Origin: Alphaproteobacteria bacterium
GTDB lineage: Bacteria > Pseudomonadota > Alphaproteobacteria > Rickettsiales > JABCZZ01
Reading direction: 5' to 3'
Assembly: GCA_013286285.1 (NCBI GenBank)
Contig: JABDGA010000002.1
Span: 1,349-65,348, forward strand
Length of the DNA: 64,000 bases
Both the position numbers and the translations under genes were made by a program. The notes beneath the pieces were generated by a model. It worked only from the letters and a program-made list of their open reading frames with translations. It did not search any database and had not been told where the DNA came from. Positions 6,631 through 63,654 of this stretch are shown in pieces (positions within the stretch are counted from its first letter, which is position 1; the number at the start of each line of letters is the position of its first letter).

Positions 6631-6767
6631 GAAGCTACGGTTATTCTATGGTAAATTTAGCAGAAAATAGTTACTTTTTTATGAAGAAGGGAGGCATTAT
6701 AGCTTCTTACATTTTTGGATTATGATGAGCTATACTAGGTATGATAATAGGTTAGTCTATCATTTTA

Positions 6768-7226
6768 TTAGCCGGGGTGAAAGTATCTGCCTTTGCGCTT
6801 ATCTTGCTCAATTGCTTCTACATGGCTTGTTCTAGGTCCTTTGGGAGCGAATTTATTGCGTGCCAGTCTTTCAGCTTTTGTAATACGCTCTATATACCCA
6901 TCACGAACCAATTCTGTCATTGCTTTATCACTGGCACACAGCACATCATTCGAACCATTTTTATATGTTCCAACCCATTCTTCTTGAACGGTTTTCTCCG
7001 CTTCCTGCCTTGAGAGCTCCGGTGAGAGCCCTTGCTGTACGCCAAGTTCGGTGAAGTAGTCTATTTTTCTGATCCGTAGTGCCTCTATCACGTCCTGAAG
7101 CCTTTTTCCATCAATGGAATAGACTAATTCTCTTTCCTGGGCATCGAGAAAAGCCCTCACAGCCATACTTCCGCTGAGCCAGCCCGTTTTTATCGTTGGT
7201 ACTCTCCGGGCCAGAATAACTTCCAT
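6768..7226 (-). CDS. Hypothetical 152-aa protein; probably the downstream portion of the frameshift-split helicase gene
   Basis: AT-rich. Overlaps the helicase ORF by 37 nt in the -1 frame. Its frame is open back to the A7 run at 7255-7261. It repeats a 'GW[IL]SG' motif also present in the helicase C-terminus. Confidence 0.55.
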   Translation of the reverse strand: MEVILARRVPTIKTGWLSGSMAVRAFLDAQERELVYSIDGKRLQDVIEALRIRKIDYFTELGVQQGLSPELSRQEAEKTVQEEWVGTYKNGSNDVLCASDKAMTELVRDGYIERITKAERLARNKFAPKGPRTSHVEAIEQDKRKGRYFHPG

Positions 7227-9055
7227 CGCTTCTTTGCTGGCATAATATACGGGGTTTTTTTATTTCTATAATAATATAGTGCTATCCAATGAGCCTGTAT
7301 CTCTTGTATTGGTAGGCCTTCTCTAATTTTTTCATCTCTTAATTTTTCAAACTCGCTAATCCATGTTCTGGATGTACCTCCATATGCATTCGCGGCTGCG
7401 AGCCCACTTATCCAGCCCTTGTCATCGTCAGGTGCCCTATCGTAGGTTTGCGCCCGCTTCTGTTTATGTTCATTGCTTATTATAGTTAATGCATTGGCAT
7501 CGGTTATTAATTCAAATTGTGATACATCAATATCTGGCGGCAGTTGTTTAAACTGCCTTGTCGCCCGCGCTCGCCTTACCGCAGTTCTTGGCTCTACTCC
7601 TTCAATTACTTCAGAACAGTAAATCGGCATCATGTTAGGGTTTTCCTGATAAAGTTTTTCGGTATTTTCGTCGATAAGATTAATAACGGTTGCTATTTTG
7701 TCGGGGTTGTCTGGATCAAGGCGAAATCCGCGCCCAAAAATTTGGGTGGCTTCCACTTTGGAAAAGCGGTCAACCAGATCGATAATTATACTATCGCGTC
7801 GGCAATCATAGCCTACTTTCAGCTTGCTTGCCGATGCCAACAGCAAGATTTTGCCTTTTTCATGTAGATCAAAAATTTCATCCTCAGAATACCATTCCTT
7901 ATTACCTTCCATAAGCCTGTTTACTGTGATGGGATTTTCTTCTTTATCCGTCATCATCCCCGGACGAAGAAATGCTCCCTTAATCCCTCCGTGAACGGGA
8001 GCTATCAGCTCTATGCCTTCTTCATTTAACCATCGTTTGCTTTCGGTGTACGCGCTGTCGTCCAACATATTGTTTGCAAGTCTAACAATATCGTCAGCAT
8101 GCTGTCTGCCACCGCAGTAAATGGCTCCGTTCTGGCCGAAATAACGTTCGCTGCTATCTATGTCTCTGCCACGTAAATACGTTTCCAGAGCGCTCCTATT
8201 ACGAGCCTCGTGATTAAGAAGGATTTGTAGTTCTTTAAGGCTTAAATTACGGCCATGCTCTTTTTTAGCAAATTCATGAAATTTTTCTTCATCAATAAGG
8301 AATTTTGTTTTCAATAATACAGGGCGAACGTCACATAGATCGCCACGCTTGATGGCTTCTTTCAAGCTAAGGTTATAATAAGGAGGAAAACGCGCGAGAA
8401 TGGTTTTATCTTCCGTATATTCTGGTGTTGCAGTAACCGCAATTTGCAAACTGTCTTTGAATTTATCAACAGCTTTACCAAATCCTGAAGCGGTTGTTAC
8501 GTGTGCTTCATCAAAGCAAACCAATCCATACTCATCTGGTTTATATATTTTTCTTTCGTCTTCACGGGCGTCATCACGGCTAATGGATTGATAAGTAGTA
8601 ATAAGTACTTTTGGTTTGCGAGTAATATGTTTTCTTTTATGGTATTGAACGCCAATATCACTATTATTCCAATCTATTTTTTTACCTTGTTCATCATCTG
8701 CTTCAATAGTGGGAGCTATTTCTGGAAGAAATTCTGCAAAAGCCCGTGCTGTTTGTATAACAAGGCGTTCTGTAGGCACTACAATCATTATGCGTGGTGC
8801 ATCAGGGTTATCTTTTGTTGCTTCTAGATAACTTTCTATTAAAGCCATAAACGTTGCAGTTTTACCTACACCTGTTGGCAAAATGATGGAGCCTTTACGT
8901 TGTCCTTTTTCTAAGCCTGCGGTATAGGCATCAAACGCTTCTCTTTGCGTACCCTCACGCAAAGCGTGAATTTTGTCATGGAAAACAAATTTGTTCCATG
9001 CAAAAGCTTTTAGTTTTATTAAAAAATCCGATTCAATTTTTAAATTGAGTGACAT
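7190..9055 (-). CDS. Superfamily-2 helicase (ResIII/DEAH-type)
   Basis: 621 aa with motif I 'LPTGVGKT', motif II 'CFDEAH', motif III 'TATPE' and motif VI 'QIFGRGFR'. Very AT-rich: 15/60 GC in a hand count of 8581-8640. Confidence 0.8.
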   Translation of the reverse strand: MSLNLKIESDFLIKLKAFAWNKFVFHDKIHALREGTQREAFDAYTAGLEKGQRKGSIILPTGVGKTATFMALIESYLEATKDNPDAPRIMIVVPTERLVIQTARAFAEFLPEIAPTIEADDEQGKKIDWNNSDIGVQYHKRKHITRKPKVLITTYQSISRDDAREDERKIYKPDEYGLVCFDEAHVTTASGFGKAVDKFKDSLQIAVTATPEYTEDKTILARFPPYYNLSLKEAIKRGDLCDVRPVLLKTKFLIDEEKFHEFAKKEHGRNLSLKELQILLNHEARNRSALETYLRGRDIDSSERYFGQNGAIYCGGRQHADDIVRLANNMLDDSAYTESKRWLNEEGIELIAPVHGGIKGAFLRPGMMTDKEENPITVNRLMEGNKEWYSEDEIFDLHEKGKILLLASASKLKVGYDCRRDSIIIDLVDRFSKVEATQIFGRGFRLDPDNPDKIATVINLIDENTEKLYQENPNMMPIYCSEVIEGVEPRTAVRRARATRQFKQLPPDIDVSQFELITDANALTIISNEHKQKRAQTYDRAPDDDKGWISGLAAANAYGGTSRTWISEFEKLRDEKIREGLPIQEIQAHWIALYYYRNKKTPYIMPAKKRWKLFWPGEYQR

Positions 9056-9071
9056 ATAAAAAAGAGCATTA

Positions 9072-9401
9072 TCATCGAGAAGAGGATCCCGAAGAGCCGG
9101 TCGTAGCCGGGCTAGTGACGTTTTGCTGGGTTGCCGTCAGGTATTTCTGCACGTTAACGCTTTCGCGATCGCCGTTCTGTATATTTTGCCCTTGTCCTTT
9201 ATCCAGATCCGACGGGTTGGCTAGCTGCGCCTTTACATTGTTATAATAGGCACAGCCGAAATTGCTGAAATCGGTATTCTCATAATTATGTATGGAGTTG
9301 CCGCTCCAGTCAGGGCAGGAGCGGGTGGATTTCTGTTCCGGCGTGCAGCTTCCGGCAGATAGCAGAATAGCAATGAGCAGCAATGAAGATGACAAACGCA
9401 T
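9072..9401 (-). CDS. cpaD: Pilus assembly lipoprotein CpaD-like
   Basis: 109 aa with a signal peptide and Cys ('LLSAGSC'). The 'GCAYYNNVKAQLANPSDL' segment resembles the CpaD family. Lies directly downstream of cpaC. Confidence 0.6.
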   Translation of the reverse strand: MRLSSSLLLIAILLSAGSCTPEQKSTRSCPDWSGNSIHNYENTDFSNFGCAYYNNVKAQLANPSDLDKGQGQNIQNGDRESVNVQKYLTATQQNVTSPATTGSSGSSSR

Positions 9402-9411
9402 AAACTCATCC

Positions 9412-10827
9412 TTATTTCAGTTGATACCCGGCTGCACCATGCAGGTGTGGATTTGCCGAATCCGGACTTTCTATGCCTTCCGGCATTTCCTTGTACAGCT
9501 TGCCGAGTAGTATGCGCTCCGCATCGCTGGAAAGCAGCAGCCCCTGTGTGGGATCATGGAGGGCGTCCGCTTTGTCCACGCCGCCGACGATATAGGGAGT
9601 CACGATAATCACAAGTTCGGTCTGATTGTGCTGGAATTGGCTGGAGCGGAACAAAGCTCCCAGAACCGGCATATCACCAAGGAAGGGGAACTTGTTGATA
9701 TCATTATTACGATCATTCTCTATTAATCCGGCGATAGTGAAACTCTGGCCGCTGCCCAACTCTACCGTGGTGGAGGCTTTGCGGGTCTGGAGCGCGGGGA
9801 TGTTAAAGCCGGCAGTGCTTACTGCTCCGGTTTGCGAAAGGGAGCTTACTTCAGGCGCCACAGTAAGGTTGATGCGATCTTTCGATAACACCACGGGTAT
9901 GAAACTCAAGCTGACGCCGAAAGGCTGGTAGGTGATGGAAACCTGCGCCGTGGAGCCGCTTCCGGTCACGGAGGGTATAGGTATCTGGCCACCAGCAAGG
10001 AAACTGGCCGTCTGGCCGGATTGCGTGGTAAGGGTGGGCTCGGCGAGCGTAGCGACCAGCCCGTTATCTTCCAGCGCATCCACCACTCCCTGGAGGCTGT
10101 TATGGGAGTCGGAGAAGGCCGCGTATAGCGAGTTGTCCGTGCCGCTGCGGTTAATGATAGTCGGCGTAGTCGGATCGGTGATGGCGCGTCCCTGCAACAC
10201 ACCGAAAGCAAAGTTACTGAGAGAGCTGGAAAGATTCTGCAGGCTGATGCCGAAGCGCTTCAATTCGGTGCGATCCACTTCCGCCACTTTGACCTTGAGC
10301 ATGACCTGATTGGAACCCAGCGGATGCAGCATGTTCACCAGCGTCTGGCCTGATTTTACGAATGGCGCGGCAAGCTTGCGTATGTCTTCCGCCTGCAGTG
10401 GTGAATCCACATCTCCGTTCATTACCAGCGCGCCGTCAATGGACTGGAAACGGACTTTGGAATCCGGCATGATTTCCTTCACGGTCTCGTTCAGCTTGCT
10501 GAGGTTATGCGTTACGCTCACGATAGCGCGCAGTATTTCATTGTCTTTGGAATCCACCGCAAACACCGTTGTTTCCCCTACACCTTTGGCGTTGATGTAT
10601 ACCAGTGTTGGGGAGACTACTTGCACGTCGGCCACCGTAGGATCGGCGGCAATCACGGAAGAGGCTGGCGCGGAAAGATGTACGAGTTGGCCTTTGCTTA
10701 CCTCAAGGTGATAACTGATTTCACTGGCAATAGCGGGGGAAGCGGCGCTACCTTCCGTCGCCAATGCATAATAGGGCACAGACGTAATGCAGCAAGAAAT
10801 CGCCAGGGAATATATAAACTTTTTCAT
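9412..10827 (-). CDS. cpaC: Tad pilus secretin CpaC/RcpA
   Basis: 471 aa with a signal peptide and the C-terminal secretin core '...PFLGDMPVLGALFRS...ELVIIVTP'. Confidence 0.9.
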   Translation of the reverse strand: MKKFIYSLAISCCITSVPYYALATEGSAASPAIASEISYHLEVSKGQLVHLSAPASSVIAADPTVADVQVVSPTLVYINAKGVGETTVFAVDSKDNEILRAIVSVTHNLSKLNETVKEIMPDSKVRFQSIDGALVMNGDVDSPLQAEDIRKLAAPFVKSGQTLVNMLHPLGSNQVMLKVKVAEVDRTELKRFGISLQNLSSSLSNFAFGVLQGRAITDPTTPTIINRSGTDNSLYAAFSDSHNSLQGVVDALEDNGLVATLAEPTLTTQSGQTASFLAGGQIPIPSVTGSGSTAQVSITYQPFGVSLSFIPVVLSKDRINLTVAPEVSSLSQTGAVSTAGFNIPALQTRKASTTVELGSGQSFTIAGLIENDRNNDINKFPFLGDMPVLGALFRSSQFQHNQTELVIIVTPYIVGGVDKADALHDPTQGLLLSSDAERILLGKLYKEMPEGIESPDSANPHLHGAAGYQLK

Positions 10828-11684
10828 CGCGCTCCCGTCCCCCCATGGAAATCCAGATGTTCTGAGGCGCTGCCATGGAATACGTTGACGCTGCTTCCGG
10901 TGCCTTTATTTTCCATCAGCTTGCTGACATCACTGTTGGTGGAGTAATTGTTTTCCGCAGGCTCGCTTGCCGACGGCTTATCGCTTTGAACAGCGGCATT
11001 GGCAGGAGCATTTATCTTAGGCTTCGTGTCGGCATTCTGGGCGAGGCTGCGCAGGCTTACCGAAATACTCCCGATGCTGATGGCGACATTGATCATCTCC
11101 GCTTGCTTCGGCGAAACCTCGAGGGTGATGGTCTTGGCGACAATCGCTTTATTATCCGGGTTATTCAGCATCTGGTCGATGGCAAGCACGCGGACATCTT
11201 CTATGAAGGTTTCGCTTGCCAGCGTGCCGTCGGAAAGCTTGTGTGTCATGATGAGATCCACCCTGTCGCCGGGAAAGACAAAACCTGCATTGCCGGAGGT
11301 GGAATTGACCGCGATGGATACGGCACGCTTGCCGGGAGTAAGTACCGCAGACATGAAGCCGCCTTCACTTGCTGTAACAATAGACGCGCCGCTTAATGGC
11401 TCCCCTGCGATGATATCGCGCCGTGCCACGCCGCCATTATATTCCTCTATCTTGTGCGCATCCTGCATGATGAAGGAGGGAGACAAGTTTGCCTTTGGCC
11501 ATTCCGCCCAGCCCAAATTCTTTTCCGCACGTACAAAACTGCCCGCAGCGATATCGGCAGTGGCGACAAGGATTTTAGGCCCGCTTTCCGCCACCGGAGC
11601 GGCTGCATGATGCTTCACCATTACAACTAATAGCGTTGCAATGCAGATCGCCATCACGAGTAATATGAGTGTCCGTGCGTTCAT
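10824..11684 (-). CDS. cpaB: Flp pilus assembly protein CpaB/RcpC
   Basis: 286 aa with an N-terminal TM helix and a SAF-like region. Overlaps the cpaC start by 4 nt. Confidence 0.8.
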   Translation of the reverse strand: MNARTLILLVMAICIATLLVVMVKHHAAAPVAESGPKILVATADIAAGSFVRAEKNLGWAEWPKANLSPSFIMQDAHKIEEYNGGVARRDIIAGEPLSGASIVTASEGGFMSAVLTPGKRAVSIAVNSTSGNAGFVFPGDRVDLIMTHKLSDGTLASETFIEDVRVLAIDQMLNNPDNKAIVAKTITLEVSPKQAEMINVAISIGSISVSLRSLAQNADTKPKINAPANAAVQSDKPSASEPAENNYSTNSDVSKLMENKGTGSSVNVFHGSASEHLDFHGGTGAR

Positions 11685-11855
11685 CGAACTATACTATAAA
11701 ACTATAATTAAGGAATCGTTAATAGGATTACGCAGTCGAGAGGGCGGCGGAAGAAAAATAGTAAATAGAAGTGATAATTATGGTACAGTTGGCGGTCGTT
11801 ATTTTATAAAATGCGAATCAAGTTTTACTGAAAACGGAATAAAAAAAGCGGCAAC

Positions 11856-12923
11856 TTATCCTGCAATCTTTTTAAGCTTAGACACTGCAACCGGAGGAGA
11901 AAAATAATATCCTTGAAAAAGATCCACGCCTGCTTTGAGCAGCCCAAGATGGGTTTCTTCATTTTCCACGCCTTCGGCAATTAACGTGGCGCCGGATGCG
12001 TGCGCTATCGCAACCAGTTCGCCGATCGTCTGCTGTTCTCTCGCCAGCGCGGAGTGATGTACCAGATCGATATCGAGTTTGATAAAGTCCGGGCGCACGG
12101 TTTCGAGAATTTTTTTTGCCATGGCGAAGGAGGAAATATCGTCGAGTGACAATAAGTAGCCACGTGAGCGGCAGTAATCGAAAATTGCCTTCAAGTGCGA
12201 AATATCGCGCGGCGTTTCAGAATGGGTAAAATCCAGCACGATTTGTTTTGAGGGCATTCCGTTGAATCTTGCCGCATCGGAAAGGCCTTCAAGATACTTC
12301 TCTGGACGGTGGATGAACCCCGGTATGAGGTTAATGAAAAGAAAGCCGTCGAGATCGCTGGTAATGAATGTCCGGATGGCTTTCAGATGCAGGTAGCGAT
12401 CGAGCATATATTCGGCGTTTAAATATTTCGCCGCTTCAATAATCTCGCCGCCACCGATGACGCGATCACCGGCTTCCATACGAGCAAACGCTTCGTAACC
12501 GAATACTTTCCCACGCTTGTCGAGCACCGGCTGCATGTAACAGACAATGCGATCGTCCAGCAGTGCATCCCCAAGCCAAAGGCTGCCGGCGATTTTGTCT
12601 ATGATATCCAATGACTTTTTGGCAAAGATGAATTCCTGGGGATCCGGTTGCGAGTCACCTACCAACAGTGATACTCTCGCCGTGCCTGCCTGATCATGCT
12701 GTGTTATGATTTCACGTAGCGTTTTCCATGCCGGTTCCCATGCATTGGTGCAGCGTAGGATATAGGGATAATCTACGGAATCCAACTTTTGCATCCCATA
12801 CGTTTCCAGATCTTTTGCGAACGCCGGAGTGTATTCGCAAAAAACCGCCAGCCAGTAATTCGAGGACTGATTATAGGGAAGATTGAAGGTGAACGGGATT
12901 TTTTCATCGCCCATGCGCAGCAA
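11856..12923 (-). CDS. EAL-domain protein (c-di-GMP phosphodiesterase-like, motifs partly divergent)
   Basis: 355 aa containing 'YEAFAR', 'FINLIP', 'IKLD', 'AEGVENEE' and 'QGYYFSPP'. However, 'DDFGTG' reads 'DDISSF' and 'EITE' reads 'DFTH'. Confidence 0.75.
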   Translation of the reverse strand: MLRMGDEKIPFTFNLPYNQSSNYWLAVFCEYTPAFAKDLETYGMQKLDSVDYPYILRCTNAWEPAWKTLREIITQHDQAGTARVSLLVGDSQPDPQEFIFAKKSLDIIDKIAGSLWLGDALLDDRIVCYMQPVLDKRGKVFGYEAFARMEAGDRVIGGGEIIEAAKYLNAEYMLDRYLHLKAIRTFITSDLDGFLFINLIPGFIHRPEKYLEGLSDAARFNGMPSKQIVLDFTHSETPRDISHLKAIFDYCRSRGYLLSLDDISSFAMAKKILETVRPDFIKLDIDLVHHSALAREQQTIGELVAIAHASGATLIAEGVENEETHLGLLKAGVDLFQGYYFSPPVAVSKLKKIAG

Positions 12924-40944: not shown

Positions 40945-41313
40945 TTATGATTCGTTATCGTCGAAGAATTTGGGTTGAAATGTGTTAGCAAAGATAGCGG
41001 CTGGTTTGGGAACAGGTACATCAATCATATTATATAGAGCTTTCATTTCATCACGAACTTCCTGTGAAGGGATGCCACGCCCGGCTACAATTACAGTGCC
41101 GTAATCTGCTGGTTTAAAATTCTCGCTAGCTTGCATTTTTGCAAACATTTTTTTTAGATTCTTCCCTAATAATTTGATGTAGGAATATACTTGATCACCA
41201 AACATATTAGTGCCTTGAAGAAGCACTACGACTTCAGTTTCTAAATATTCATCGCTCACTAACTCAGGTGATACATTTTTACCAAAGCCAGGTGTTGACC
41301 AGTTGTTTTTCAT
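40945..41313 (-). CDS. Hypothetical protein, paralogue A of an unknown ~120-aa family (AT-rich copy)
   Basis: 122 aa. About half the residues are identical by eye to 41885-42244 ('FGK.VSP.LV', 'EVVVLL.G.N.FGD.VY', 'QASENFKP..YG', 'QPKFFD'). GC 20/60 at 41161-41220. Confidence 0.6.
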   Translation of the reverse strand: MKNNWSTPGFGKNVSPELVSDEYLETEVVVLLQGTNMFGDQVYSYIKLLGKNLKKMFAKMQASENFKPADYGTVIVAGRGIPSQEVRDEMKALYNMIDVPVPKPAAIFANTFQPKFFDDNES

Positions 41314-49446: not shown

Positions 49447-50154
49447 TTAAAGTTTACAGCAAGCCTCTTCAATCACATTCTGCAATTTTGTAAGGAATTC
49501 ACGATTTTTCATGCCGTGTGTGATATTTTCTAAAAATTCTATCGTGATCGTGCCAGGTTTCTTAACAAAAGCATTTTTTTGCCAGAGATAGCCTGAATTG
49601 AGCGCAACTGGCACGACCGGAAGTTGGAGGCTTTGGTAAAGCGCCGCGACTCCGGGGTGGTAGAGGGAGGCGCTGCCCGGTGACATCCGTGTGCCTTCCG
49701 GGAAAATGATAATCGGGCGGTTTTCTTTCGCACGGGCCTTTGCTTCGCGCAGCATCTGTTTCATGGCGGACGCGCCGGACTTGCGATCGATGTAGATATT
49801 TTTCAGCCAGACAAGATACCAGCCGAAAACCGGAAAAAATATCAATTCCCGTTTTAGGACATAGGCGGGGCGATCCAGCAGCACCCAGAAAATAATCGTG
49901 TCCCAGGCCGATTGATGCTTGGAGGCGATAAGTGCCGCACCTTTAGGGATATGCTCGCGCCCGCGCACTTCATAGGTGATGTTGCACAGCACGCGCAGCA
50001 GCCACAGCGAACCCGCTCCCCATGCGCGGGCGATCGTAAACGCAAATGGGCGGTATACACAGACAAGTGGTATGCCGCATAGCCCAAGTACGGCAATCCA
50101 TGCCCAGAAAGCGATATTAAATAGGGCAGAGCGGATCAGCATGGCTTTATACAA
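49447..50154 (-). CDS. plsC: 1-acyl-sn-glycerol-3-phosphate acyltransferase
   Basis: 235 aa with 'HQSAWDT' (HX4D) and 'FPEGTR'. Confidence 0.85.
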   Translation of the reverse strand: MYKAMLIRSALFNIAFWAWIAVLGLCGIPLVCVYRPFAFTIARAWGAGSLWLLRVLCNITYEVRGREHIPKGAALIASKHQSAWDTIIFWVLLDRPAYVLKRELIFFPVFGWYLVWLKNIYIDRKSGASAMKQMLREAKARAKENRPIIIFPEGTRMSPGSASLYHPGVAALYQSLQLPVVPVALNSGYLWQKNAFVKKPGTITIEFLENITHGMKNREFLTKLQNVIEEACCKL

Positions 50155-50238
50155 TATTTATAAAAAGATTGCATTGTGGTGTAGTTTTTTTATGTTGGAT
50201 AATATATTTTATATATTTAATGAACCGTACAAAAGAAA

Positions 50239-50655
50239 ATGAAAACACGCATCTCTATTTTTGTTCTGGCTGCTGTTTTACTTGCAGGATGCAATAGCGG
50301 CGATTCTTCCTATTATACGGAGTATTCCCTGAATAAGAAGTTTGAAGGGCACCCGATCAATGAATTTTTCCATGCTTATGGTTTTCCTTCTGCCCGATTT
50401 GAAAAATCGGATGGCCAGATTATGTATCGCTGGGCTTCGTCTCAGTTAGATGTGTATCCGGCGCATGCGCATCCTGAAGCCTATTATTCTGATAAGGGAA
50501 CGTATGAGGTAGTGGATGAACCCCGTGGCGGAACACGCAGGCAGTATTGCGAGTTACGTATTCATACAGACAGGGCAGAGACTATCCATAAGATAGATAT
50601 TACGGTGGATTCCATGGGAAAATGGAGCAATTCAAGATGCTCTGAGATTTTCTGA
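50239..50655 (+). CDS. Hypothetical lipoprotein
   Basis: 138 aa with lipobox 'LLAGC' and no recognisable domain. Confidence 0.55.
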   Translation: MKTRISIFVLAAVLLAGCNSGDSSYYTEYSLNKKFEGHPINEFFHAYGFPSARFEKSDGQIMYRWASSQLDVYPAHAHPEAYYSDKGTYEVVDEPRGGTRRQYCELRIHTDRAETIHKIDITVDSMGKWSNSRCSEIF

Positions 50656-50674
50656 ACATAGTTGCAAGCAGAGT

Positions 50675-51847
50675 TTATGGTGCCCCCGGCGGACTTATCA
50701 TACCACCGATAGCGTATTTAGATAAAATATTTTCTGTCGGATCCCCTGTACCGATAGACCATCCTTTGCTTGTTGGATTGTCATTTTTGTTCCAGATAAC
50801 ATATCCAGCAACACCATTATTAAACGCTGTTTGTAGATTATTATCAAATAAGGCTGCTCGTTGCTGCAAGGTTGCCTCAGTTACCGTACCTCCTGGGCAT
50901 TGACCAGTTGTAGTAACTCCTTCCGCACAAATGCCGACTTCCCCTATAAAAGAAGGCTTATTCAGTGCTTTGCACGCGGCAAGACGGGACTGCAACTGCG
51001 GAGGAAAGGGAAGACTGCCAGTTTTATAACCGTGATACACATCGCATAAGTCAACAGTTCCGCTATTTACACGCTGAAAATCCGATCCTTGCCCGCCGCA
51101 CCAGCTAATCGCTCCCAGGTCCACCATATGGTTATGGTCAACTTGTTTGATTGCTTCTACCATATTATGGGCAAAATTAAATAATGCACTTTCTGCGGTA
51201 GTCTCGGAACAGGAATTGTTGGGGTTTCTTCCATCCGGCTCATTTACCAGTTGATACCAGGCAATAGTCGGTTCGTTCGCATAATGCTGCGCTACTTTTA
51301 CTGCGTAATCATGAAACGATAAAGGATATCCATCGTTTTGCTGGGTATATCCGCTTTGATACCATGACAGGTACTTCATAGTGCTGGAAGGCTCACAATT
51401 TGTCCATTCGTTCACCAGTATGGGAAGTATATAGAGATTATATTTTTTGGCATAACTGACGAAACGGTCAAATGTTGTGAAAGTGGAAGCGTTGTCTCCT
51501 CCCTGAAAAAATGCGACACGCACAATATTGCCCTTTGATGCGTTATGGATTTGTGCAAATACTGTATCAAGCTGGCTATCTGAAGGCCCAGAGCAACCGC
51601 TACCTAACCAGTCGTAATTATAACCGACAGCCCGGAACTCTTGTCCGTTAACCAGAAGATGTGTGCCGGATTTAGTAATAAAACCGCTAATTATCGGCGT
51701 TCCTTGTGCGTCTTGAGAAAAAGCAGAACCTGATAATATTCCCCCTAATAACACCGTCCACGAAAATATACTCACGACGCCTTTACGCATATAACGTAAC
51801 GGATTGTTCTGGAAGAAAAAAACAAAAGACTTAAATATTCCTGGCAT
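50675..51847 (-). CDS. Secreted glycoside hydrolase, GH5-like (beta-mannanase/cellulase type)
   Basis: Acid/base motif 'QLVNEPDG' and nucleophile 'FIGEVG', with a (beta/alpha)8-like spacing. The signal peptide probably starts at the Met at 51790. GC 20/60 at 51421-51480. Confidence 0.7.
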   Translation of the reverse strand: MPGIFKSFVFFFQNNPLRYMRKGVVSIFSWTVLLGGILSGSAFSQDAQGTPIISGFITKSGTHLLVNGQEFRAVGYNYDWLGSGCSGPSDSQLDTVFAQIHNASKGNIVRVAFFQGGDNASTFTTFDRFVSYAKKYNLYILPILVNEWTNCEPSSTMKYLSWYQSGYTQQNDGYPLSFHDYAVKVAQHYANEPTIAWYQLVNEPDGRNPNNSCSETTAESALFNFAHNMVEAIKQVDHNHMVDLGAISWCGGQGSDFQRVNSGTVDLCDVYHGYKTGSLPFPPQLQSRLAACKALNKPSFIGEVGICAEGVTTTGQCPGGTVTEATLQQRAALFDNNLQTAFNNGVAGYVIWNKNDNPTSKGWSIGTGDPTENILSKYAIGGMISPPGAP

Positions 51848-51964
51848 AAATATATCTTAAAAGTTAATAAAAATATACGTATTGGAGAGTATTATTTTGA
51901 TGATAATATCATAAATAAGTTAACTAATCGTTAGTTATAGAGATATTTACTAAACGAATTGCGT

Positions 51965-52879
51965 TTATTGAAATCTGAATGACAAAGCGCAGTTTTGGAT
52001 AGGAGCGTTTTGTAACTGGTATTTCTGAACTGCGGCGCTGCCACCTGCATAGCTGTTATCATAACAGGTTGTATTTGCATATGGAGTTGCCGCTGTTGAT
52101 GAAGCACAATAATCACTACCCCCGGCTCCTTGAGTGAGGCCACCGGCGGGGCCTATATAATTGCTACTGTTCCCAACATCAAAATTTTGATAACAGGCAA
52201 TGACGTTACCCGATTGCGGCAAGCCATCATCGATCTTGCTGTCAATGTTATATGCTTGCTGTACGGTTAGCCCAGGATTAGAGGTTGAATATATGCTGCA
52301 AATAATTTGAGTGACTGAAGAGACGGTATAGTAATTTGTGCCGTTGCCGATGCTGATAACATAGACAAAATTGTTTGTTCCTATCTTTGCGGTTGGAAGC
52401 CATCCGCTTATTTTTGGAGTTGATGTCAAGGTCGTTGTGCTGGAAGTACTTTCGTTGGGATAGCCAGCTCCTATCCCTATATAGGTGTCAATCAGGCCGG
52501 CTGTGCTAAGGTCCTGCCAAAAGATGGCAAGTTCGCCGCTTCCTATAGTGTGATTGCCAACCCCACTTGCATTATTGCTGCAATTACTTTGCAGTATGCC
52601 GTTCCCATCGCCTTCGCCAGGATATTGTCCCCTGGCCTGAAATCCGAAATTACTTGCATAAGGGTCGGGAATATCGCCAGGCAAACCGCCGTATTTACCC
52701 TGAAATGTGTGAAGCGCCGTATTATATTTTTCGATCTGAGCAATTTGTGCCCGCTGTGCGGCGGTGTCTATCAAATCCCGCCCGGTCAAAATCCCACCGA
52801 CAATCAGGCCGATAATGACTAGGACGATGCTTAGTTCGATGAGCGTGAAGCCGGAAGCAGAACAGGCAGTGGGGAGCAT
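51965..52879 (-). CDS. Large type-IV-prepilin-like protein (N-terminal cleavage/methylation motif)
   Basis: 'MLPTACSASG|FTLIELSIVLVIIGLIVGGIL' is a class-III signal: Gly-Phe cleavage site, Glu at +5 and a hydrophobic helix. At 304 aa it is about twice pilin size. The C-terminal region is rich in G/S/T/N/Y with 6 Cys. Confidence 0.75.
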   Translation of the reverse strand: MLPTACSASGFTLIELSIVLVIIGLIVGGILTGRDLIDTAAQRAQIAQIEKYNTALHTFQGKYGGLPGDIPDPYASNFGFQARGQYPGEGDGNGILQSNCSNNASGVGNHTIGSGELAIFWQDLSTAGLIDTYIGIGAGYPNESTSSTTTLTSTPKISGWLPTAKIGTNNFVYVISIGNGTNYYTVSSVTQIICSIYSTSNPGLTVQQAYNIDSKIDDGLPQSGNVIACYQNFDVGNSSNYIGPAGGLTQGAGGSDYCASSTAATPYANTTCYDNSYAGGSAAVQKYQLQNAPIQNCALSFRFQ

Positions 52880-52999
52880 TTCCTAAGTATAGAAAATTCC
52901 CCTAATAAATCAATGTGATTTTCTGATTGACCTAATATCATTAGGGGAGATCGTTTGTCATTCTGAAGTGTAGTTGTTTTCAGCAATGGGGTAGGAGAT

Positions 53000-54928
53000 T
53001 TATTCACTAATCTCCGGTGCCATCCTGCCAGTATTGCGTTTGGGCAGGTAATTGCTGTTTATTGTTTTTACCACTCCTTTTTCTGTGTCAAGAAGATGTA
53101 TGGCATAGGTGGCATGTGTGTTGAAAGACTCCTCGCCATAGGAAAGCAGGATATGCGAGTCAGTGTTGCGGAAAGCCGGGATGGAAGGATCGGCGGCAGC
53201 ACCGGTGATATAAAGCAGTCCGCCCAGAATTTCCGAATGCGCGCCCGCTTTATTATCCAGCACAGTACAGTCCTGCTCAGTCTTGATGCCAAGAATCCAT
53301 AACGGCGCGCCGATATTTGCAATCCGCACTCCCGGTCCTTCTGTGTTAAGCTGGCGTGCCCATACACCCTGGCTGCCTGCTACGGAAACAGTGCCGCAGC
53401 AGGTGTTATCCATGAATGCCTTGCCGCCGCCTGCCGGACGGAGCAAGGTAGTCACGCCCGCGCCGACGACATCGCGTAAATAGAGGGGAGCGCTGCCTGC
53501 GGCTTCTACGGCCACCTGATCGCCCAACCAGCTATTATCGAAGGCGAGTTTTTCGATAATAAGGATATTTTTCATATTATTGGTACGGAACATGCCAAAA
53601 TCACGCCGAAATCCTGAAGGACGCCGGGCAACAGCGTGAATGGTGGAAGTCATGCCGATAATATGCCGCACACTTGGCGGAACAATGATATTATCGCTGA
53701 TAAGGTAGGTGCCGTGCGGAAAATATACAGTTGCTGCACCGGATGCGAACGCCTTGCGGATCGCTCCTGTCGAGTCTTCTTCTGAGTCCGGCTTTGCACC
53801 AAAATGTGTAACACTTACCCATTTTTGCGGAGGCTCGTATGAAGGGGCGGGGGGATATTCCACCGGTAGCGACCATGGGGTCCCTGAAGTTGAAAGCCGT
53901 GTGTTCCCATTATAAACACCGTCCATAACGGCAGGCGGTGTCATGCCCAGCGCTGTTTCATAGCCTTGTATGTGTAGGCTCCGTATGTTCATATAGCCTT
54001 TATTATCAATTGCATTGCTACCTGATGTTGAATTCTCTATCTTTCCGCCTTCTATCACCATCAAGCCGTCCTGTGACAGGTTGACGATTGGCTGGCGTGC
54101 CTGACTGATTGCCAAATCATGGATGGAAAGCACATTATGGTTATTACGCAACCCGATTTCCTGGTTCTTCAGCGCTATAGCTTCCATCGTCACGCCATAT
54201 TCGGTATTGGCGGCGTCAATGCCGATGGTAAAGCCGTCCACCGTAACATTCTGTAATAACGATGGTCCTGGCCATTTGCGGGTCAGTGCAATGCCTGTAC
54301 TTCCGCTGCCGGGGGCAGCGCGCACCAGTACATTGCGTACCGCGCCCATATTATTGGCAAGGTAATCAATGCCGATCGCACCCGGATTATTTTTGCCGGC
54401 GTCAATGGTCATGTTCTCGACGTAGTTCATATAGGCGTCGTTACCTTCGCCTTTGCCGGTATAATCCTTGCCGCCGCTGGTAGGTGTGCCATCGATCAGC
54501 TTCGCTGTCGTAAAGAAGATAGCCTTTGGATTTTCCTGGTTATTATAACCTTCTGCATTATCCTTAAGCCGGATAATGGTGCTGCTTTTATCTTCTCCCA
54601 TAAGAATCGCGCCGCTGCCGAACTTGCCGTTCGGATAACGCTTTTCTATGGAAGATGATACGAGGTAAGTGCCTGAAGGAAAATATACAATTTTGTCTTT
54701 CCAGAAAGAAGGGCCGGTATCGCTGCCGCTTGCGGTAAGCGCGGCCTTTATTGCAGCCGTATCATCCGTAACACCGTCGCCTTTTGCACCAAAATTCCGT
54801 ACGTTAATCGCCCCCGCATCCACCGGAAATACCAGCGCAGCCTGGGAGTCCGTATAGATAAGAACGGATGCCGCTGCGAGTAATCTTAATGCAAATAACA
54901 TACAAATCCCTAAAAATCCCAATGACAT
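53000..54928 (-). CDS. Secreted two-lobed right-handed beta-helix protein (pectate-lyase-3 / GH55-like)
   Basis: 642 aa with a signal peptide. 'INVRNFGAKGDGVTDDTAAIKAAL' is echoed ~350 aa later by 'VSVTHFGAKPDSEEDSTGAIRKAF'. This tandem-lobe layout is what I recall for GH55 beta-1,3-glucanases. Confidence 0.6.
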   Translation of the reverse strand: MSLGFLGICMLFALRLLAAASVLIYTDSQAALVFPVDAGAINVRNFGAKGDGVTDDTAAIKAALTASGSDTGPSFWKDKIVYFPSGTYLVSSSIEKRYPNGKFGSGAILMGEDKSSTIIRLKDNAEGYNNQENPKAIFFTTAKLIDGTPTSGGKDYTGKGEGNDAYMNYVENMTIDAGKNNPGAIGIDYLANNMGAVRNVLVRAAPGSGSTGIALTRKWPGPSLLQNVTVDGFTIGIDAANTEYGVTMEAIALKNQEIGLRNNHNVLSIHDLAISQARQPIVNLSQDGLMVIEGGKIENSTSGSNAIDNKGYMNIRSLHIQGYETALGMTPPAVMDGVYNGNTRLSTSGTPWSLPVEYPPAPSYEPPQKWVSVTHFGAKPDSEEDSTGAIRKAFASGAATVYFPHGTYLISDNIIVPPSVRHIIGMTSTIHAVARRPSGFRRDFGMFRTNNMKNILIIEKLAFDNSWLGDQVAVEAAGSAPLYLRDVVGAGVTTLLRPAGGGKAFMDNTCCGTVSVAGSQGVWARQLNTEGPGVRIANIGAPLWILGIKTEQDCTVLDNKAGAHSEILGGLLYITGAAADPSIPAFRNTDSHILLSYGEESFNTHATYAIHLLDTEKGVVKTINSNYLPKRNTGRMAPEISE

Positions 54929-55000
54929 TAATGCAACAATTGTTATATATAAAGAAGATTAATAAATATAAACGAATGTTAACAATAATTATATATTGAT

Positions 55001-55645
55001 ATGGCGGGATCCCTGGTAACATTACTGCTTTTACGGAAACTCCGTGTGCATTCTCTGGATAAAACCGGATTGAAACATGCTGCGGAAGATCTGGCGGCGC
55101 GTGCGCGCGATTTTTCACCGAATGTTATCATTGGTATCCGCTCCGGCGGTTATCATGTCGCGAAAATCATGGCAGAAACAACACCACAGGCAGCGCTGCT
55201 GGGCATAACCTGCCGCAGGCCTAGCACACAGAAAAAGCAACGCTATTCGATTTTTAAACGCCTGTTGTGTAAATTACCGCATTTTATTACCGATCGGCTG
55301 CGCTTACTTGAGCATATTATTATTACCAGCCTGTGTGTGCCGAAACGCACCGCCCTGATACCAGACGCGGGAGAACTGGCTGCGATAGAGCATACGTTAC
55401 AGCGGGTGGGCGGCGCTGCGCGAATCCTGATTGTAGATGATGCGGTGGATAGTGGCTCTACCATCGCGGCGGTGCATAAGGCGATAAAGAACATTGCCAA
55501 TCCTTCCGCGGTCATTAAGATAGCGGCGATTACCGTCACTACTACCACGCCGTTTATCGAACCGGATTTTTCACTGTACCGTTATGTCCTTTGCCGATTC
55601 CTCTGGTCGCTCGACTCTAAAAGCGGCAGCTGTGCTGATTTTTGA
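55001..55645 (+). CDS. Phosphoribosyltransferase-fold protein (type I PRT motif)
   Basis: 214 aa with PRPP-binding loop 'ILIVDDAVDSGST'. Substrate unknown. Confidence 0.6.
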   Translation: MAGSLVTLLLLRKLRVHSLDKTGLKHAAEDLAARARDFSPNVIIGIRSGGYHVAKIMAETTPQAALLGITCRRPSTQKKQRYSIFKRLLCKLPHFITDRLRLLEHIIITSLCVPKRTALIPDAGELAAIEHTLQRVGGAARILIVDDAVDSGSTIAAVHKAIKNIANPSAVIKIAAITVTTTTPFIEPDFSLYRYVLCRFLWSLDSKSGSCADF

Positions 55646-56300
55646 TCTCGACGGCACCATTCTCTCCGTCAATAGTTTCCATTTCTGGGTACTAACCATG
55701 CTTATAGGCCGATTTGGCGGTCTTTCCTATGGTGAACGTATTGTACTCTCCCTGCGTACTATCCGAACATTAGTGGAACGCAAATTGTTTAGAAAAAGCC
55801 ACTCTGCTATCCGGCAATATCTGCAGGGGGCATGGATGGATGCTTTGGAGAAGGATGCAGGGCAAGCGGCCCTGCTCAGGCTGCACGAAGGCTTAAGGAA
55901 TCGAATCAGGCCGAATCTCAGGAACGTGCTTGATATCGTAGCGGAAGGCAAGGCGGATGCTGTCCTGGCAACAGCAGCGGCGGGTGTATATGCGGAAGGC
56001 TTTGCCCTTAGCCTGGGGTTCCGGCACATCCTTACCACGGATGGCTTAAGCGAAAATTCCGGCGAAAAGAAGCGCGACAGGGTGTTATCACTGCTTGCGG
56101 ATCAGGGATTGCAGCACCGCACGCGGATTTTCTTTACCGATCATGAGGACGATCTGCCGTTGATACGGGAAAGTCATCTCGTCTTATGGTTCGGCAAGTA
56201 TGAAGATATGCAACGGATACGAAAATATGCGCTGGATGTAGAGATTATTCCCTGTGCGCATCTGCCCGGTAATGAAATTATAAGGTTATTAGAGATATGA
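55584..56300 (+). CDS. HAD-superfamily hydrolase
   Basis: 238 aa with motif I 'IFDLDGTI' and C-terminal 'TDHEDD'. Overlaps the PRT gene by 62 nt and the trmFO start by 4 nt. Confidence 0.65.
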
Positions 56301-60907: not shown

Positions 60908-62026
60908 TTAGGCGAAGAGTTCTGCCTGTATAGAGCCATGATCCACAGCTAGCACTTGGGCATCCAGGCCTTCAAAGACATCGTGATCGGTTCCAGTGAG
61001 CCAGCATTGCGCGCCTAAGGCCTGCAGTTCAGTGAAAAGTGCTTCGCGGCGTGTGCCGTCAAGGTGGGTGGCCACCTCGTCAAGCAGCATGACGGGTACA
61101 TTACCGTGCCATAGCGCACCCGCCTGTGCCTGTGCAAGCACTATGGAAACCAGCAATGCCTTCTGCTCGCCGGTAGAACAAAATTCTGCAGGCAGATTTT
61201 TTTCTTTATGTATGACATCTATTTTTGTCCGATGCACGCCGGTGAGGGCGCGTCCAGCCGCTGCATCCTGAGCACGGCTGCTTTTTAGTGAGTCTCTGAA
61301 GCCATTTTCGGTTGCCAGCGCTGAATTCTGCGTCAGCAACTCTTCCACAGCTCCCGATAAGACGATATGCGCTTTAGGAAAGACATGGGTGGGGATGTTC
61401 ATGGCGTTATTCAACTGTTCCGCAGCATTCTGGCGTGCAACCGCTATGGCAATGCCCTGTTCCGCCATTTTCTTCTCCAGCGCTGTGAGCCAGACCGGAT
61501 CGGTCTGTCCCATTTGTAGCAGACGGTTACGTTCGCGCATGACGCTTTCGTAGGCATTTACGCGCGTGGCATGCGCGCCGTCAAAACTGAACACCAGCCG
61601 ATCCAGGAATTTACGCCGCTCGCTGTTGCCTTCGATAAACAGCGTATCCATTTGCGGCGTGAGCCACAGCACAGAAAAGATACGGGCGAGATCCGTATGC
61701 GAGCGCGCGGTTTTTTCGTCGATTTTGACAATGCGTTTATCGTTACCATTACACTCTCTGCCGGTGCCGATGTTCGCGGGCCCCTTTAACCCCTCAATCT
61801 CTGCATGCAGCGCCCAGGGCTTGCCGTTATGCAGGTTGTCCAGTTCACTGACGCTTGCCCGCCGCAGGCCACGTCCGGGAGTGAGCAGTGAAATCGCTTC
61901 CAGTATATTGGTTTTCCCCGCACCATTGGCGCCGACAAGCACTACTGGGCGTATATCTACCTCCAAGTGTGCATAGGAATAGTTGCGGAAATTGGAAAGT
62001 ATCAGGGTTTTAATATGGATGTTCAT
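60908..62026 (-). CDS. recF: DNA replication/repair protein RecF
   Basis: 372 aa with 'GANGAGKTNILEAI' and the signature 'SGEQKALL', then 'LLDEV.AHLD'. Confidence 0.95.
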   Translation of the reverse strand: MNIHIKTLILSNFRNYSYAHLEVDIRPVVLVGANGAGKTNILEAISLLTPGRGLRRASVSELDNLHNGKPWALHAEIEGLKGPANIGTGRECNGNDKRIVKIDEKTARSHTDLARIFSVLWLTPQMDTLFIEGNSERRKFLDRLVFSFDGAHATRVNAYESVMRERNRLLQMGQTDPVWLTALEKKMAEQGIAIAVARQNAAEQLNNAMNIPTHVFPKAHIVLSGAVEELLTQNSALATENGFRDSLKSSRAQDAAAGRALTGVHRTKIDVIHKEKNLPAEFCSTGEQKALLVSIVLAQAQAGALWHGNVPVMLLDEVATHLDGTRREALFTELQALGAQCWLTGTDHDVFEGLDAQVLAVDHGSIQAELFA

Positions 62027-62098: not shown

Positions 62099-62512
62099 TT
62101 AACGTTCTCTGTCTGTGTTACCTTTTTTCTGTTCTTTTTTTGCTTTTTGTCTTCTCAGGAATTCGTCAGAGCCGGTTATGTTATCATGTTGTTCTTCACC
62201 GGAAGATATGGTATCTGCTGTATCTTGTTTGTTTCCGATTACACGGATGTCTTTGGCTTGTGGATGACTTTTAAGATATTTCTCAAATAATTCTTCAGCA
62301 TACACCGGATCGCCAGCTATCGCATCTCTGATTGATTGCCTTTGTCTATCAATTTCCTGTCTCTCACTTGGAATGATATATCCTTCAGGAGCTGGTACTT
62401 TGGCCACAGCTTCTGCTTCAATTAACTCTATGATTATACTATCAAGTTCAGGATCCAAATCGGAGAATTTTCTTATCCCTTCTGGTCTTTGAGCATCAAA
62501 TTCATTCGTCAT
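62099..62512 (-). CDS. Hypothetical acidic/basic orphan protein (137 aa)
   Basis: AT-rich (21/60 GC at 62101-62160). No recognisable motif. Lies between dnaN and recF on the same strand. Confidence 0.45.
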   Translation of the reverse strand: MTNEFDAQRPEGIRKFSDLDPELDSIIIELIEAEAVAKVPAPEGYIIPSERQEIDRQRQSIRDAIAGDPVYAEELFEKYLKSHPQAKDIRVIGNKQDTADTISSGEEQHDNITGSDEFLRRQKAKKEQKKGNTDRER

Positions 62513-62535: not shown

Positions 62536-63654
62536 TTACACCCGCATCGGCATGATGACGTAGAGCGCGCTGACATCGGCAGTGTCGCGCACCAATGCCG
62601 GAGAAGTGCCGTCGGCCAGCATGAATTGCACGATGTCGCCTTCTATCTGTCCCATCATATCTAGCAGGTAGCGCGAGTTAAAGCCAATCTCTATCGGGTC
62701 GGCGGCATAGGTAACATCAATTTCTTCCGTCGCTGTGCCGTGTTCGGGGCTATCGGCGGAAAGGGTCAGCTTGCCCTTTGCTACCGCAAGGCGGATGCCG
62801 CGGGTTTTCTCAGAGGCAATGGTAGACACGCGATCGACCGCAGAGGTAAACGTCTTGCCATCGAGCTCCATTAATTTGTCATTCTGGCTGGGGATAACGC
62901 GCTCATAATCGGGGAAAGTGCCGTCTATCAATTTCGACACCAGCACGGCGTTGCCGCAGGCGAAGCGAATCTTGCTTTCCGACAGCGAGATATCAATATG
63001 GGTGAGCCCGTCCTGTGTCAGTTTTTGGATTTCACCGATGGTTTTGCGCGGGATGATGACGCCGGGCATGCCCGCTGCTCCACCCGGCAGCGCCACTTCA
63101 ATGCGTGCAAGGCGGTGGCCGTCGGTCGCCACGCTACGCAGCACCCCAACTCCCTGGTTCTCGGCGGCATGGAGGTAAATACCATTTAAATAATAGCGGG
63201 TCTCCTCGGTGGAAACCGCAAAACGCGTCTTTTCAATAAGTGCGCTGCATTCCGAAGCGGTAATCGAAAAGGAAAAAGGCAGTTCACCTTCGGTCATCAC
63301 CGGGAAGTCTTCCACCGGTAATGTGGCAAGCGAGAAACGCGAATTCCCGGCGCGGATGACGAGCTTGGTTGCATCCGGTACGCGGGATATTTCAACCTGT
63401 GCGCCATCGGGCAGCTTGCGGATGATGTCATAGAGCGTTTGTGCGGGAACGGTGGTTTTGCCAGGTTCCGCAACCGCTGCTACCGTGCGCTCGACAATGG
63501 CGATGTCCATATCGGTCGCCGTCAGGTAAAGCGTATCCGCTGCGGCTTCCAGCTTGACATTGGAGAGGATTGGGATGGTGCCCCGGCGCTCGACAACGGA
63601 TTGCACATGCCCCAGCGCTTTAAGCAACAACGAACGTTCAATGGTCAGTTTCAT
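62536..63654 (-). CDS. dnaN: DNA polymerase III beta sliding clamp
   Basis: 372 aa with 'MKLTIERS.LLKAL..V..VVERR.TIPILSNV' and C-terminal 'YVIMPMRV'. Confidence 0.95.
   Translation of the reverse strand: MKLTIERSLLLKALGHVQSVVERRGTIPILSNVKLEAAADTLYLTATDMDIAIVERTVAAVAEPGKTTVPAQTLYDIIRKLPDGAQVEISRVPDATKLVIRAGNSRFSLATLPVEDFPVMTEGELPFSFSITASECSALIEKTRFAVSTEETRYYLNGIYLHAAENQGVGVLRSVATDGHRLARIEVALPGGAAGMPGVIIPRKTIGEIQKLTQDGLTHIDISLSESKIRFACGNAVLVSKLIDGTFPDYERVIPSQNDKLMELDGKTFTSAVDRVSTIASEKTRGIRLAVAKGKLTLSADSPEHGTATEEIDVTYAADPIEIGFNSRYLLDMMGQIEGDIVQFMLADGTSPALVRDTADVSALYVIMPMRV

Follow-up and report, generated by a model that had tools for sequence, protein, structure and literature searches.

The window analyzed here is a 64,000-nucleotide (nt) stretch of DNA from an Alphaproteobacteria bacterium (contig JABDGA010000002.1), and the block under study, positions 50160 to 54990, encodes a small lipoprotein, a secreted glycoside hydrolase of family 5 (GH5), a prepilin-like protein, and a two-lobed beta-helix protein resembling the family 55 (GH55) glucanases. 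A sequence-only reading of this DNA had proposed that the last three genes might be an "attach and digest" module, gained by horizontal transfer and directed against eukaryotic cell walls. We find instead that the block is probably a mosaic of independently evolving exported-protein genes, not one functional or mobile unit. The trio recurs in none of the 81 other pilin loci, none of about 28 beta-helix loci, and none of the 3 loci of GH5 homologs; the beta-helix gene has native GC content and keeps conserved chromosomal neighbors, and no mobility signature accompanies the block. The four genes are a chance juxtaposition with separate histories, ordinary genes that make up no new system: each adds one more member to a superfamily already described, and as a unit the proposed system does not exist.

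The open reading frame (ORF) map agrees with the earlier description of the four genes, their strands, and the AT-rich spacers of about 120 nt. The spacers between the minus-strand genes measure 117 nt (GC 0.205) and 120 nt (GC 0.35). The flanks, plsC on the left and, beginning at 55001 on the right, a row of phosphoribosyltransferase (PRT), haloacid dehalogenase (HAD), and trmFO genes, were also described correctly, as was the dip to 20 GC in 60 nt at 51421 to 51480. The genes are as follows.

49447-50154: plsC, left flank of the block
50239-50655, plus strand: small lipoprotein gene, 138 amino acids (aa), lipobox LLAG/C (a slash marks the processing site)
50675-51847, minus strand: GH5 gene, PF00150, 390 aa from the first ATG
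51965-52879, minus strand: prepilin-like gene, 304 aa, PF07963 and TIGR02532
53000-54928, minus strand: beta-helix gene, 642 aa, two PF12708 domains
55001-55645, plus strand: type I PRT gene (Pfam/NCBIfam), divergent from the beta-helix gene
55584-56300, plus strand: HAD-IB hydrolase gene (Pfam/NCBIfam), overlapping the PRT gene by 62 nt

The three minus-strand genes do not recur together in the loci examined

Gene neighborhoods were surveyed within 8 to 10 kb on either side of each homolog, on contigs of metagenome-assembled genomes (MAGs) or metagenomes. A comparison of the window GH5 and beta-helix proteins with the 81 pilin loci (up to ±10 kb; tblastn at 1e-5, blastp at 1e-3) returned zero matches. 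Loci L083 to L165, about 26 of which hold a near-full-length beta-helix homolog, returned zero matches to the pilin, the GH5 enzyme, or the lipoprotein. Among the called genes of L166 to L170, no pilin lies beside a GH5 homolog and neither a pilin nor a GH5 gene lies beside a beta-helix homolog; likewise, neither the pilin nor the beta-helix protein is ever a neighbor in the three GH5 homolog loci (L166 to L168). The 139 nearest non-pilin neighbors of the pilin genes represent 193 Pfam families, none with more than 3 members, and the recurrent families include no glycoside hydrolase. The neighbors of the pilin genes are essentially random, and the survey of pilin homologs for recurrent glycanases, which the sequence-only reading had put forward as a check, shows no enrichment among these 139 neighbors. 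The failure to co-occur in the other loci examined and the wide presence of the beta-helix gene in Alphaproteobacteria both tell against a module, which is thus largely refuted by the criteria that the sequence-only reading had itself set.

The composition of the block is not uniform. What had been described as a low-GC block of 4.8 kb is low in GC only across its left 2.8 kb, from 50160 to 52999, where the lipoprotein, GH5, and pilin genes lie (GC 0.43 compared to the window mean of 0.504). The atypical composition is limited to this part, and the beta-helix gene, with a GC content of 0.507, is close to the window mean. The z-scores of GC content at third codon positions (GC3), taken against 58 other ORFs, are -1.7 for the lipoprotein gene, -2.1 for the GH5 gene, -1.3 for the pilin gene, and -0.4 for the beta-helix gene. 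Promoter-like and terminator-like sites in the block are no more numerous than expected by chance, the AT-rich spacers yielded no Rfam match at E ≤ 1 when checked for regulatory RNA, and the lipoprotein and GH5 genes are convergent. A mobile-element origin was considered and rejected, as the window holds no tRNA, no integrase ORF, and no convincing flanking repeats; those present are short or AT-rich and at chance level, and one inverted repeat, I1, is AT-rich and matches at 75%.

How probable, then, is a single acquired operon whose pilin would serve as an adhesin holding the cell to the wall of a eukaryote (fungus, alga, or amoeba) while the GH5 and GH55-like glycanases digest its mannan and beta-1,3-glucan? 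The co-oriented genes with their short spacers, the signal peptides on both enzymes, the mannanases found among the solved GH5 relatives, the fungal GH55 beta-1,3-glucanases to which the beta-helix protein is structurally most similar, and one further adjacency of a pilin gene and a GH16 gene in a relative are all consistent with such an operon. We nevertheless judge it very unlikely: the trio is never repeated in the loci examined, the pilin neighbors are random, no mobility signature was found at the block, the beta-helix gene is native in GC, syntenic with the PRT and HAD genes, and located in or beside exopolysaccharide (EPS) clusters in its homologs, and the similarity to GH55 stops short of the catalytic C-lobe sequence. 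The metabolism encoded in the window, with isocitrate lyase, histidine and purine biosynthesis, AstB, and glutathione synthetase, is of a free-living type and counts against the operon as well; the window does not look like part of a reduced, host-dependent genome.

The beta-helix gene has its partners in EPS biosynthesis

At least 120 full-length homologs of the beta-helix protein, with 45 to 75% identity, are known, among them proteins of Niveispirillum, Magnetospirillaceae, and MAGs labeled Rickettsiales. The closest locus (L083, 75% identity) keeps the order trmFO, HAD, PRT, beta-helix, with different genes on the other side. In L084 (GCA_035765535.1, 64% identity), the order HAD, PRT, beta-helix is kept, with a DUF1993 gene on the other side, and the HAD side runs into an EPS cluster encoding glycosyltransferases of families 4 and 2 (GT4 and GT2), Acyl_transf_3, a Wzx-like protein, Wza, and Wzc. 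The same arrangement of PRT and HAD genes with the beta-helix gene is present in L085 (64% identity), making three related contigs in all. No pilin, GH5, or plsC gene occurs in L083 or in L084 and L085. Compared to the window site, L083 and L084 are missing the pilin, GH5, and lipoprotein genes, but plsC and gltA are missing as well, so that insertion is indistinguishable from rearrangement.

In L169, a GH55-fold protein is clearly part of a Wzx/Wzy EPS cluster. At positions 6048 to 11926 of this locus, a homolog with 56% identity is the terminal gene of a row consisting of wza, wzc, a gene for a 234-aa protein, a GT4 gene, and the beta-helix gene, which overlaps the GT4 gene by 4 nt; the row is flanked by genes for Acyl_transf_3, GT4, a 454-aa unannotated protein, and Bac_transf. 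Around 14 more distant homologs, 9 of the 80 neighbors are GT4 proteins (four loci), and Bac_transf, RgpF, GT2, and Acyl_transf_3 recur. One of these distant loci has a PEP-CTERM protein and another has a GDSL esterase together with GH97, and in none of them do PRT and HAD genes adjoin the beta-helix gene. Overall, the homologs in or beside Wzx/Wzy-type EPS clusters span 34 to 64% identity. The metagenome scan with the beta-helix profile was limited by the shortness of its patterns, and of the 80 loci retrieved, about 20 contain a near-full-length relative.

Because the conserved neighborhoods are those of PRT/HAD and of EPS genes, the partners of the beta-helix gene lie rightward and in EPS biosynthesis, not leftward toward the pilin and GH5 genes. 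The eukaryotic-wall target proposed for the trio thus gives way, for this protein, to bacterial exopolysaccharide biosynthesis as the recurrent context, and this gene context suggests that the most likely substrate of the protein is extracellular polysaccharide made by the bacterium itself rather than a eukaryotic wall.

In L084, the PRT and HAD genes sit between the beta-helix gene and the EPS cluster. The HAD protein weakly matches the phosphatase-like N-terminal part of the UbiA-family model NF006088 and has no match in the PDB; the PDB matches of the PRT are purine PRTases only. A glycan phosphoribosyltransferase dependent on phosphoribosyl pyrophosphate, together with a HAD phosphatase, adds ribofuranose to polysaccharides (PMC11127046). 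By analogy, it is a speculation that the PRT and HAD proteins of the window are a split phosphoribosyltransferase/phosphatase pair of this ribofuranose-adding kind.

The beta-helix protein has a GH55-like fold

The beta-helix protein carries a Sec-type signal, read by eye, and two PF12708 domains (E = 1e-38). Its AlphaFold2 model (pLDDT 89.5, pTM 0.90) matches the GH55 structures 5m5z, 3eqn, and 8jhh in Foldseek with TMq values of 0.66 to 0.67 and the bacterial GH55 enzyme SacteLam55A with values of 0.34 to 0.45, while non-GH55 beta-helix proteins stay below 0.3. As only GH55 structures match the model over both lobes, the description of the protein as a GH55-type tandem beta-helix was right at the level of fold: the model is that of a GH55-like, two-lobed rib-cage protein.

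The PDB sequences retrieved, 3eqn (1e-17 with the single sequence, 3.4e-23 with the profile) and also 5m5z, are matched only in the cap that starts each lobe and, weakly, in a middle stretch, and the cap motif also matches epimerases, adhesins, and tailspikes. Residues 440 to 642 are where the GH55 general acid would be expected, and a profile of them matches no GH55 chain even at E ≤ 10. GH55 catalysis depends on a general-acid Glu and a nearby Tyr (E502 and Y505 in SacteLam55A), with an E480-H481 relay/subsite pair about 22 residues upstream of the general acid (PMC10637969). In the family of the window protein, E551 (in LGxKTE), Y573, E599, and E600 are invariant, and E551 lines up with the "GTSSEH" of 5m5z, although only in a non-significant stretch; the His is not conserved, and no Glu follows 22 residues later. 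Since the C-lobe has no sequence match and the alignment of E551 is non-significant, the protein is not a proven GH55 member in the sense of CAZy.

A true GH55 exo- or endo-beta-1,3-glucanase, feeding on laminarin or fungal glucan, would require the EPS contexts to be coincidental or to involve an EPS of the beta-1,3-glucan type. The exclusive match of GH55 structures to the whole two-lobed model, the PDB E-values of 1e-17 to 3e-23, and the PGAP name "glycoside hydrolase family 55 protein" given to one homolog all favor it. We consider it unlikely, given that the sequence matches are limited to generic lobe caps shared with epimerases, tailspikes, and adhesins, that the search with residues 440 to 642 is empty of GH55, that the E-H and E-x-x-Y motifs (PMC10637969) are not recognizable at the expected spacing around E551 and Y573, and that other homologs are named "GH28-related." This judgment stands independently of how a module, or a pairing of pilins with glycanases, is judged.

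One loop of the protein stands out. Residues 152 to 165 form the only low-confidence internal loop of the model (pLDDT < 50) and bear the strongly conserved sequence GGKDYxxKGEGNDAYMN, in which D155, Y156, G160 to A165, and N168 are invariant. This loop may serve as a flexible lid that matters for function, or it may bind metal.

The prepilin-like protein belongs to a large, multicopy family

The class III (prepilin) signal assigned to this protein by the sequence-only reading is confirmed by PF07963 (N_methyl; E = 6e-5, 22.8 bits against a cut-off of 21.2) and TIGR02532 (23.7 against 16.3). The leader reads MLPTACSASG/FTLIELSIVLVIIGLIVGGIL, with Gly at -1, Phe at +1, and Glu at +5, followed by a hydrophobic helix, and no second motif like this signal region, SASG/FTLIELSIVLVIIG, occurs in the window. 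In NCBIfam, the best full-family similarities are to the N termini of GspG and GspH of the type II secretion system (T2SS). The AlphaFold2 model (pLDDT 83.8) has an alpha1 helix of about 50 residues (13 to 63) and no Foldseek match in the PDB, and the globular head belongs to no Pfam family. An alignment of 30 homologs shows an invariant N-terminal helix and variable central loops, with conserved motifs LPGDIPDP, GEGDGNG (residues 88 to 94), IDxKxDDGxPQSG, and C-terminal NCALSFxFQ (the last two read IDxKIDDGxPQSG and NCALSFRFQ in the window protein). Cys272 and Cys297, near the C terminus, are invariant in all 30 sequences and may form a disulfide.

The family is large and uniform in length, at about 270 to 340 aa. 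With the head alone (residues 60 to 304) as query, 1,685 representatives of 50%-identity clusters reach E ≤ 1e-3 and 917 of them E ≤ 1e-10, and at least 460 stretches of GTDB genomes encode relatives. The latter come from MAGs labeled Rickettsiales or Alphaproteobacteria, where one genome often has many loci, and also from Acidobacteriota, Planctomycetota, and Verrucomicrobiota. A relative in the isolate Thermogemmatispora carboxidivorans (Chloroflexota; L007) is 52% identical to the window protein, an unusually high identity for a family that crosses phyla, here between an alphaproteobacterium and a Chloroflexota isolate. Of 133 family ORFs on 82 loci, 42 adjoin another copy and 91 stand alone; tandem arrays reach 7 genes, and L028, L021, L008, and L029 carry 5 to 7 within 20 kb. 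Paralogs occur in the same sample (P0009), and one from that sample, with 63% identity, belongs to a tandem pair adjoining yidC. Elsewhere, copies are placed between birA and sucA or follow two-component-system genes. Lateral spread of the family is suggested by a few copies that adjoin integrase, TraG, or ArdC genes.

Which machine would assemble such a protein? The window has no type IVa pilus or T2SS genes (PilB/C/D/Q or GspD-F), and near the pilin genes of the 82 loci, a T2SSE ATPase occurs once and a secretin once. The sequence-only reading had stated that no assembly system in the window would obviously handle the pilin. Pilus genes are in fact present at 3982 to 11684, but they are those of a Tad/Flp system, not of the type expected for a prepilin of the GFTLIE class. 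The Tad system was rejected as the obvious partner, though not as a possible one, because the pilin leader is of the type IVa/T2SS type; it also has no flp, cpaA, or tadB/C nearby, and no G/xxxxEY motif is present.

The GH16 gene located 20 nt downstream of a pilin gene in L004, which is unique among the loci, raises the question of whether pilins and glycanases are paired in this lineage. The pilin-like proteins could be subunits, of pseudopilin or filament type, in an apparatus for secretion or uptake to which polysaccharide-active enzymes are sometimes coupled, the GH5 and GH16 pairings being weakly functional and the beta-helix protein unrelated. Two of about five pilin loci of the closest relatives (the window and L004, with its 20-nt gap) abut a same-strand glycoside hydrolase, and the similarity to the N termini of GspG and GspH fits as well. 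This reading is quite improbable, as no glycoside hydrolase family recurs among the 139 neighbors and GH16 is restricted to L004, 91 of the 133 family genes stand alone beside housekeeping genes, and the T2SSE ATPase and the secretin are each near only 1 of 82 loci. A stronger form, in which the family is functionally paired in this lineage with secreted glycanases (GH5 here, GH16 in the relative), for instance through a filament that presents or helps export the enzymes against mannan- or glucan-walled cells, is most improbable; if true, the locus would be an instance of a pilus-plus-glycanase strategy not yet described.

The GH5 enzyme and the orphan lipoprotein

The GH5 assignment, with its NEP acid/base and GEVG nucleophile, is well founded. 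PF00150 (Cellulase/GH5) is matched at residues 74 to 310 with E = 2.9e-12 (47.1 bits against a cut-off of 23.5), and in 390-aa numbering the acid/base is E203 in VNEPD and the nucleophile is E303 in GEVG, both invariant in 27 homologs. In alignments, E203 falls on the NEP motif of 1rh9 and 3ziz and E303 on the EEYG of 3ziz. The nearest solved structures are endo-beta-1,4-mannanases: the single sequence matches the mannanases 1rh9, 9m20, and 3ziz, and the family profile matches 19 GH5 sequences in the PDB (best, 1.8e-15), including 3ziz, 1rh9, and 1qno with both Glu residues aligned. The enzyme is a retaining beta-glycanase, probably a beta-mannanase-like one. The true product is probably 371 aa long, since the Sec-type signal MRKGVVSIFSWTVLLGGILSGSAFS/Q, read by eye, begins at an internal ATG at residue 20 (51790); the Logan gene call begins at the same ATG. 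Both enzymes of the block thus have the N-terminal signal peptides ascribed to them earlier.

A search of 5.8 billion proteins found only 112 GH5 homologs, the best with 60% identity, and those with a named source are from Ktedonobacteraceae (Chloroflexota) or Actinomycetota. Some also match PF26410 (GH5_mannosidase), and some, including P0266, P0269, and P0271, are fused to WD40/Tol-like beta-propellers. The homolog in L166 has transposases as neighbors; in L167 and L168, the homolog is divergent from an adjoining gene for a 1,141-aa fusion protein of GT2 and PMT_2, which may be a polysaccharide synthase. The GC3 of the GH5 gene (0.381) is the lowest in the block. We infer from this low GC3, the patchy distribution, and the named relatives outside Proteobacteria that the gene was probably acquired laterally.

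The small predicted lipoprotein has the signal MKTRISIFVLAAVLLAG/C, a GC content of 0.441, and a GC3 of 0.417. It matches no Pfam or NCBIfam family and has no homolog in about 170 fetched loci, making it an orphan.

Probable separate histories for adjacent genes

A mosaic of independently evolving genes can be put in concrete terms. The beta-helix gene would be a resident chromosomal gene whose Sec-exported product, with two beta-helices and a cleft between them, cleaves or otherwise processes a bacterial extracellular polysaccharide from a Wzx/Wzy-type pathway; in this genome the gene would have been separated from the EPS cluster with its PRT and HAD neighbors retained. The pilin would be cut after Gly10 by a PilD/GspO-type peptidase and assembled through its hydrophobic alpha1 helix by a type IV pilus- or T2SS-type machine encoded elsewhere; each genome would have several such paralogs, conserved at their ends and variable in the surface loops. 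The GH5 enzyme would be Sec-exported, its gene probably gained laterally with, or next to, that of the orphan lipoprotein. Folds, motifs, composition, synteny, and the failure to co-occur are what the data show directly, and the substrates, processing steps, and direction of transfer are inferences.

Several points weigh against a mosaic. Short spacers without a predicted terminator separate the three minus-strand genes, which share one orientation, so co-transcription is possible. In L004 of a relative, a second pilin-family gene is directly followed by a glycanase gene (GH16). The proposed EPS role of the beta-helix protein comes from the context of its homologs, and the window itself has no EPS cluster. 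The neighbor surveys reach only 8 to 10 kb, on MAG or metagenome contigs, and the organism is an uncultured alphaproteobacterium, labeled Rickettsiales by NCBI, whose lifestyle is not established.

With the failure of the proposed new system, little follows from the locus itself. Two of its protein families are modest leads, uncharacterized and worth biochemical work. One is the pilin family, large and architecturally uniform at about 300 aa, with about 1,700 clusters at 50% identity and a head without a Pfam domain or solved relative. The other is the GH55-shaped two-lobed family found repeatedly within Wzx/Wzy EPS clusters of Alphaproteobacteria, which suggests that the GH55 architecture was recruited for processing the cell's own EPS.

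Other features of the window

The Tad/Flp cluster lies about 40 kb from the pilin gene and consists of the following genes.

10824-11684, minus strand: cpaB
9412-10827, minus strand: cpaC secretin
9072-9401, minus strand: CpaD-like lipoprotein
5389-6630, minus strand: tadZ/cpaE
3982-5388, minus strand: cpaF

No flp, cpaA, or tadB/C gene adjoins this cluster in the window. It is interrupted by a ResIII/SNF2-type helicase gene at 7190 to 9055 (GC 0.405, GC3 0.33) and a 152-aa ORF at 6768 to 7226. Two small ORFs of very low GC content, 62099 to 62512 (minus strand; GC 0.386, GC3 0.26) and 40945 to 41313 (minus strand; GC 0.377, GC3 0.32), may be small acquired genes; the former is wedged between recF (60908 to 62026) and dnaN (62536 to 63654), which are usually adjacent.

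Comparison with known systems

The pilin shares with type IVa pilins and T2SS pseudopilins (PilE/PilA and GspG/H) a short leader ending in Gly, Phe at +1, Glu at +5, and a predicted alpha1 helix of about 50 residues, and its conserved Cys272 and Cys297 lie near the C terminus as in the pilin D-region. It differs from both in being about twice the usual size and in belonging to a family with many dispersed or tandem copies per genome, usually unlinked to assembly genes. The DUF1559 prepilin-like proteins of Planctomycetota and Verrucomicrobiota, which are about 300 aa long, have a prepilin-type N terminus, are highly multicopy and dispersed, and are of unknown function, resemble the window family in size, N terminus, and dispersed multiplicity, and the window family also occurs in those two phyla. 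However, the window pilin has no DUF1559 match and has motifs of its own (GEGDGNG, IDxKxDDG, and NCALSFxFQ).

The GH5 enzyme resembles the endo-beta-1,4-mannanases of the GH5_7-like kind (3ZIZ, 1RH9, and 1QNO) in its PF00150 TIM barrel and in the alignment of the NEP acid/base and the downstream nucleophile Glu. It reaches only 1e-15 to solved enzymes, however, and falls in a distinct clade with several invariant Cys residues, a clade that includes WD40/beta-propeller fusions and members beside a GT2-PMT_2 synthase.

The beta-helix protein shares with GH55 beta-1,3-glucanases (PcLam55A 3EQN, CtLam55 5M5Z, MnLam55A 8JHH, and SacteLam55A 4PEW) two tandem right-handed beta-helices in a rib-cage arrangement, a PF12708 cap ("NVxDFGAKGDGxTDDT") at the start of both lobes, and secretion. 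In contrast to these enzymes, to which it is 14 to 18% identical, it is about 110 residues shorter than the fungal members, its C-lobe sequence is not detectably similar, the general-acid and proton-relay residues are not locatable in it, and the gene context of its family is EPS biosynthesis rather than glucan catabolism. Glycanases, lyases, and epimerases are a well-known class in many EPS clusters, and AlgG and the colanic-acid protein WcaM are further beta-helix proteins for polysaccharide processing encoded there. Like the mannuronan C5-epimerase AlgE and the Vibrio cholerae VPS lyase RbmB, which are among the weaker fold matches of the model (TM about 0.2 to 0.3), the window protein has right-handed beta-helical structure and is exported, and its homologs are encoded inside or beside clusters of Wza, Wzc, GT, and flippase genes; those enzymes have a single beta-helix, whereas the window family is two-lobed.

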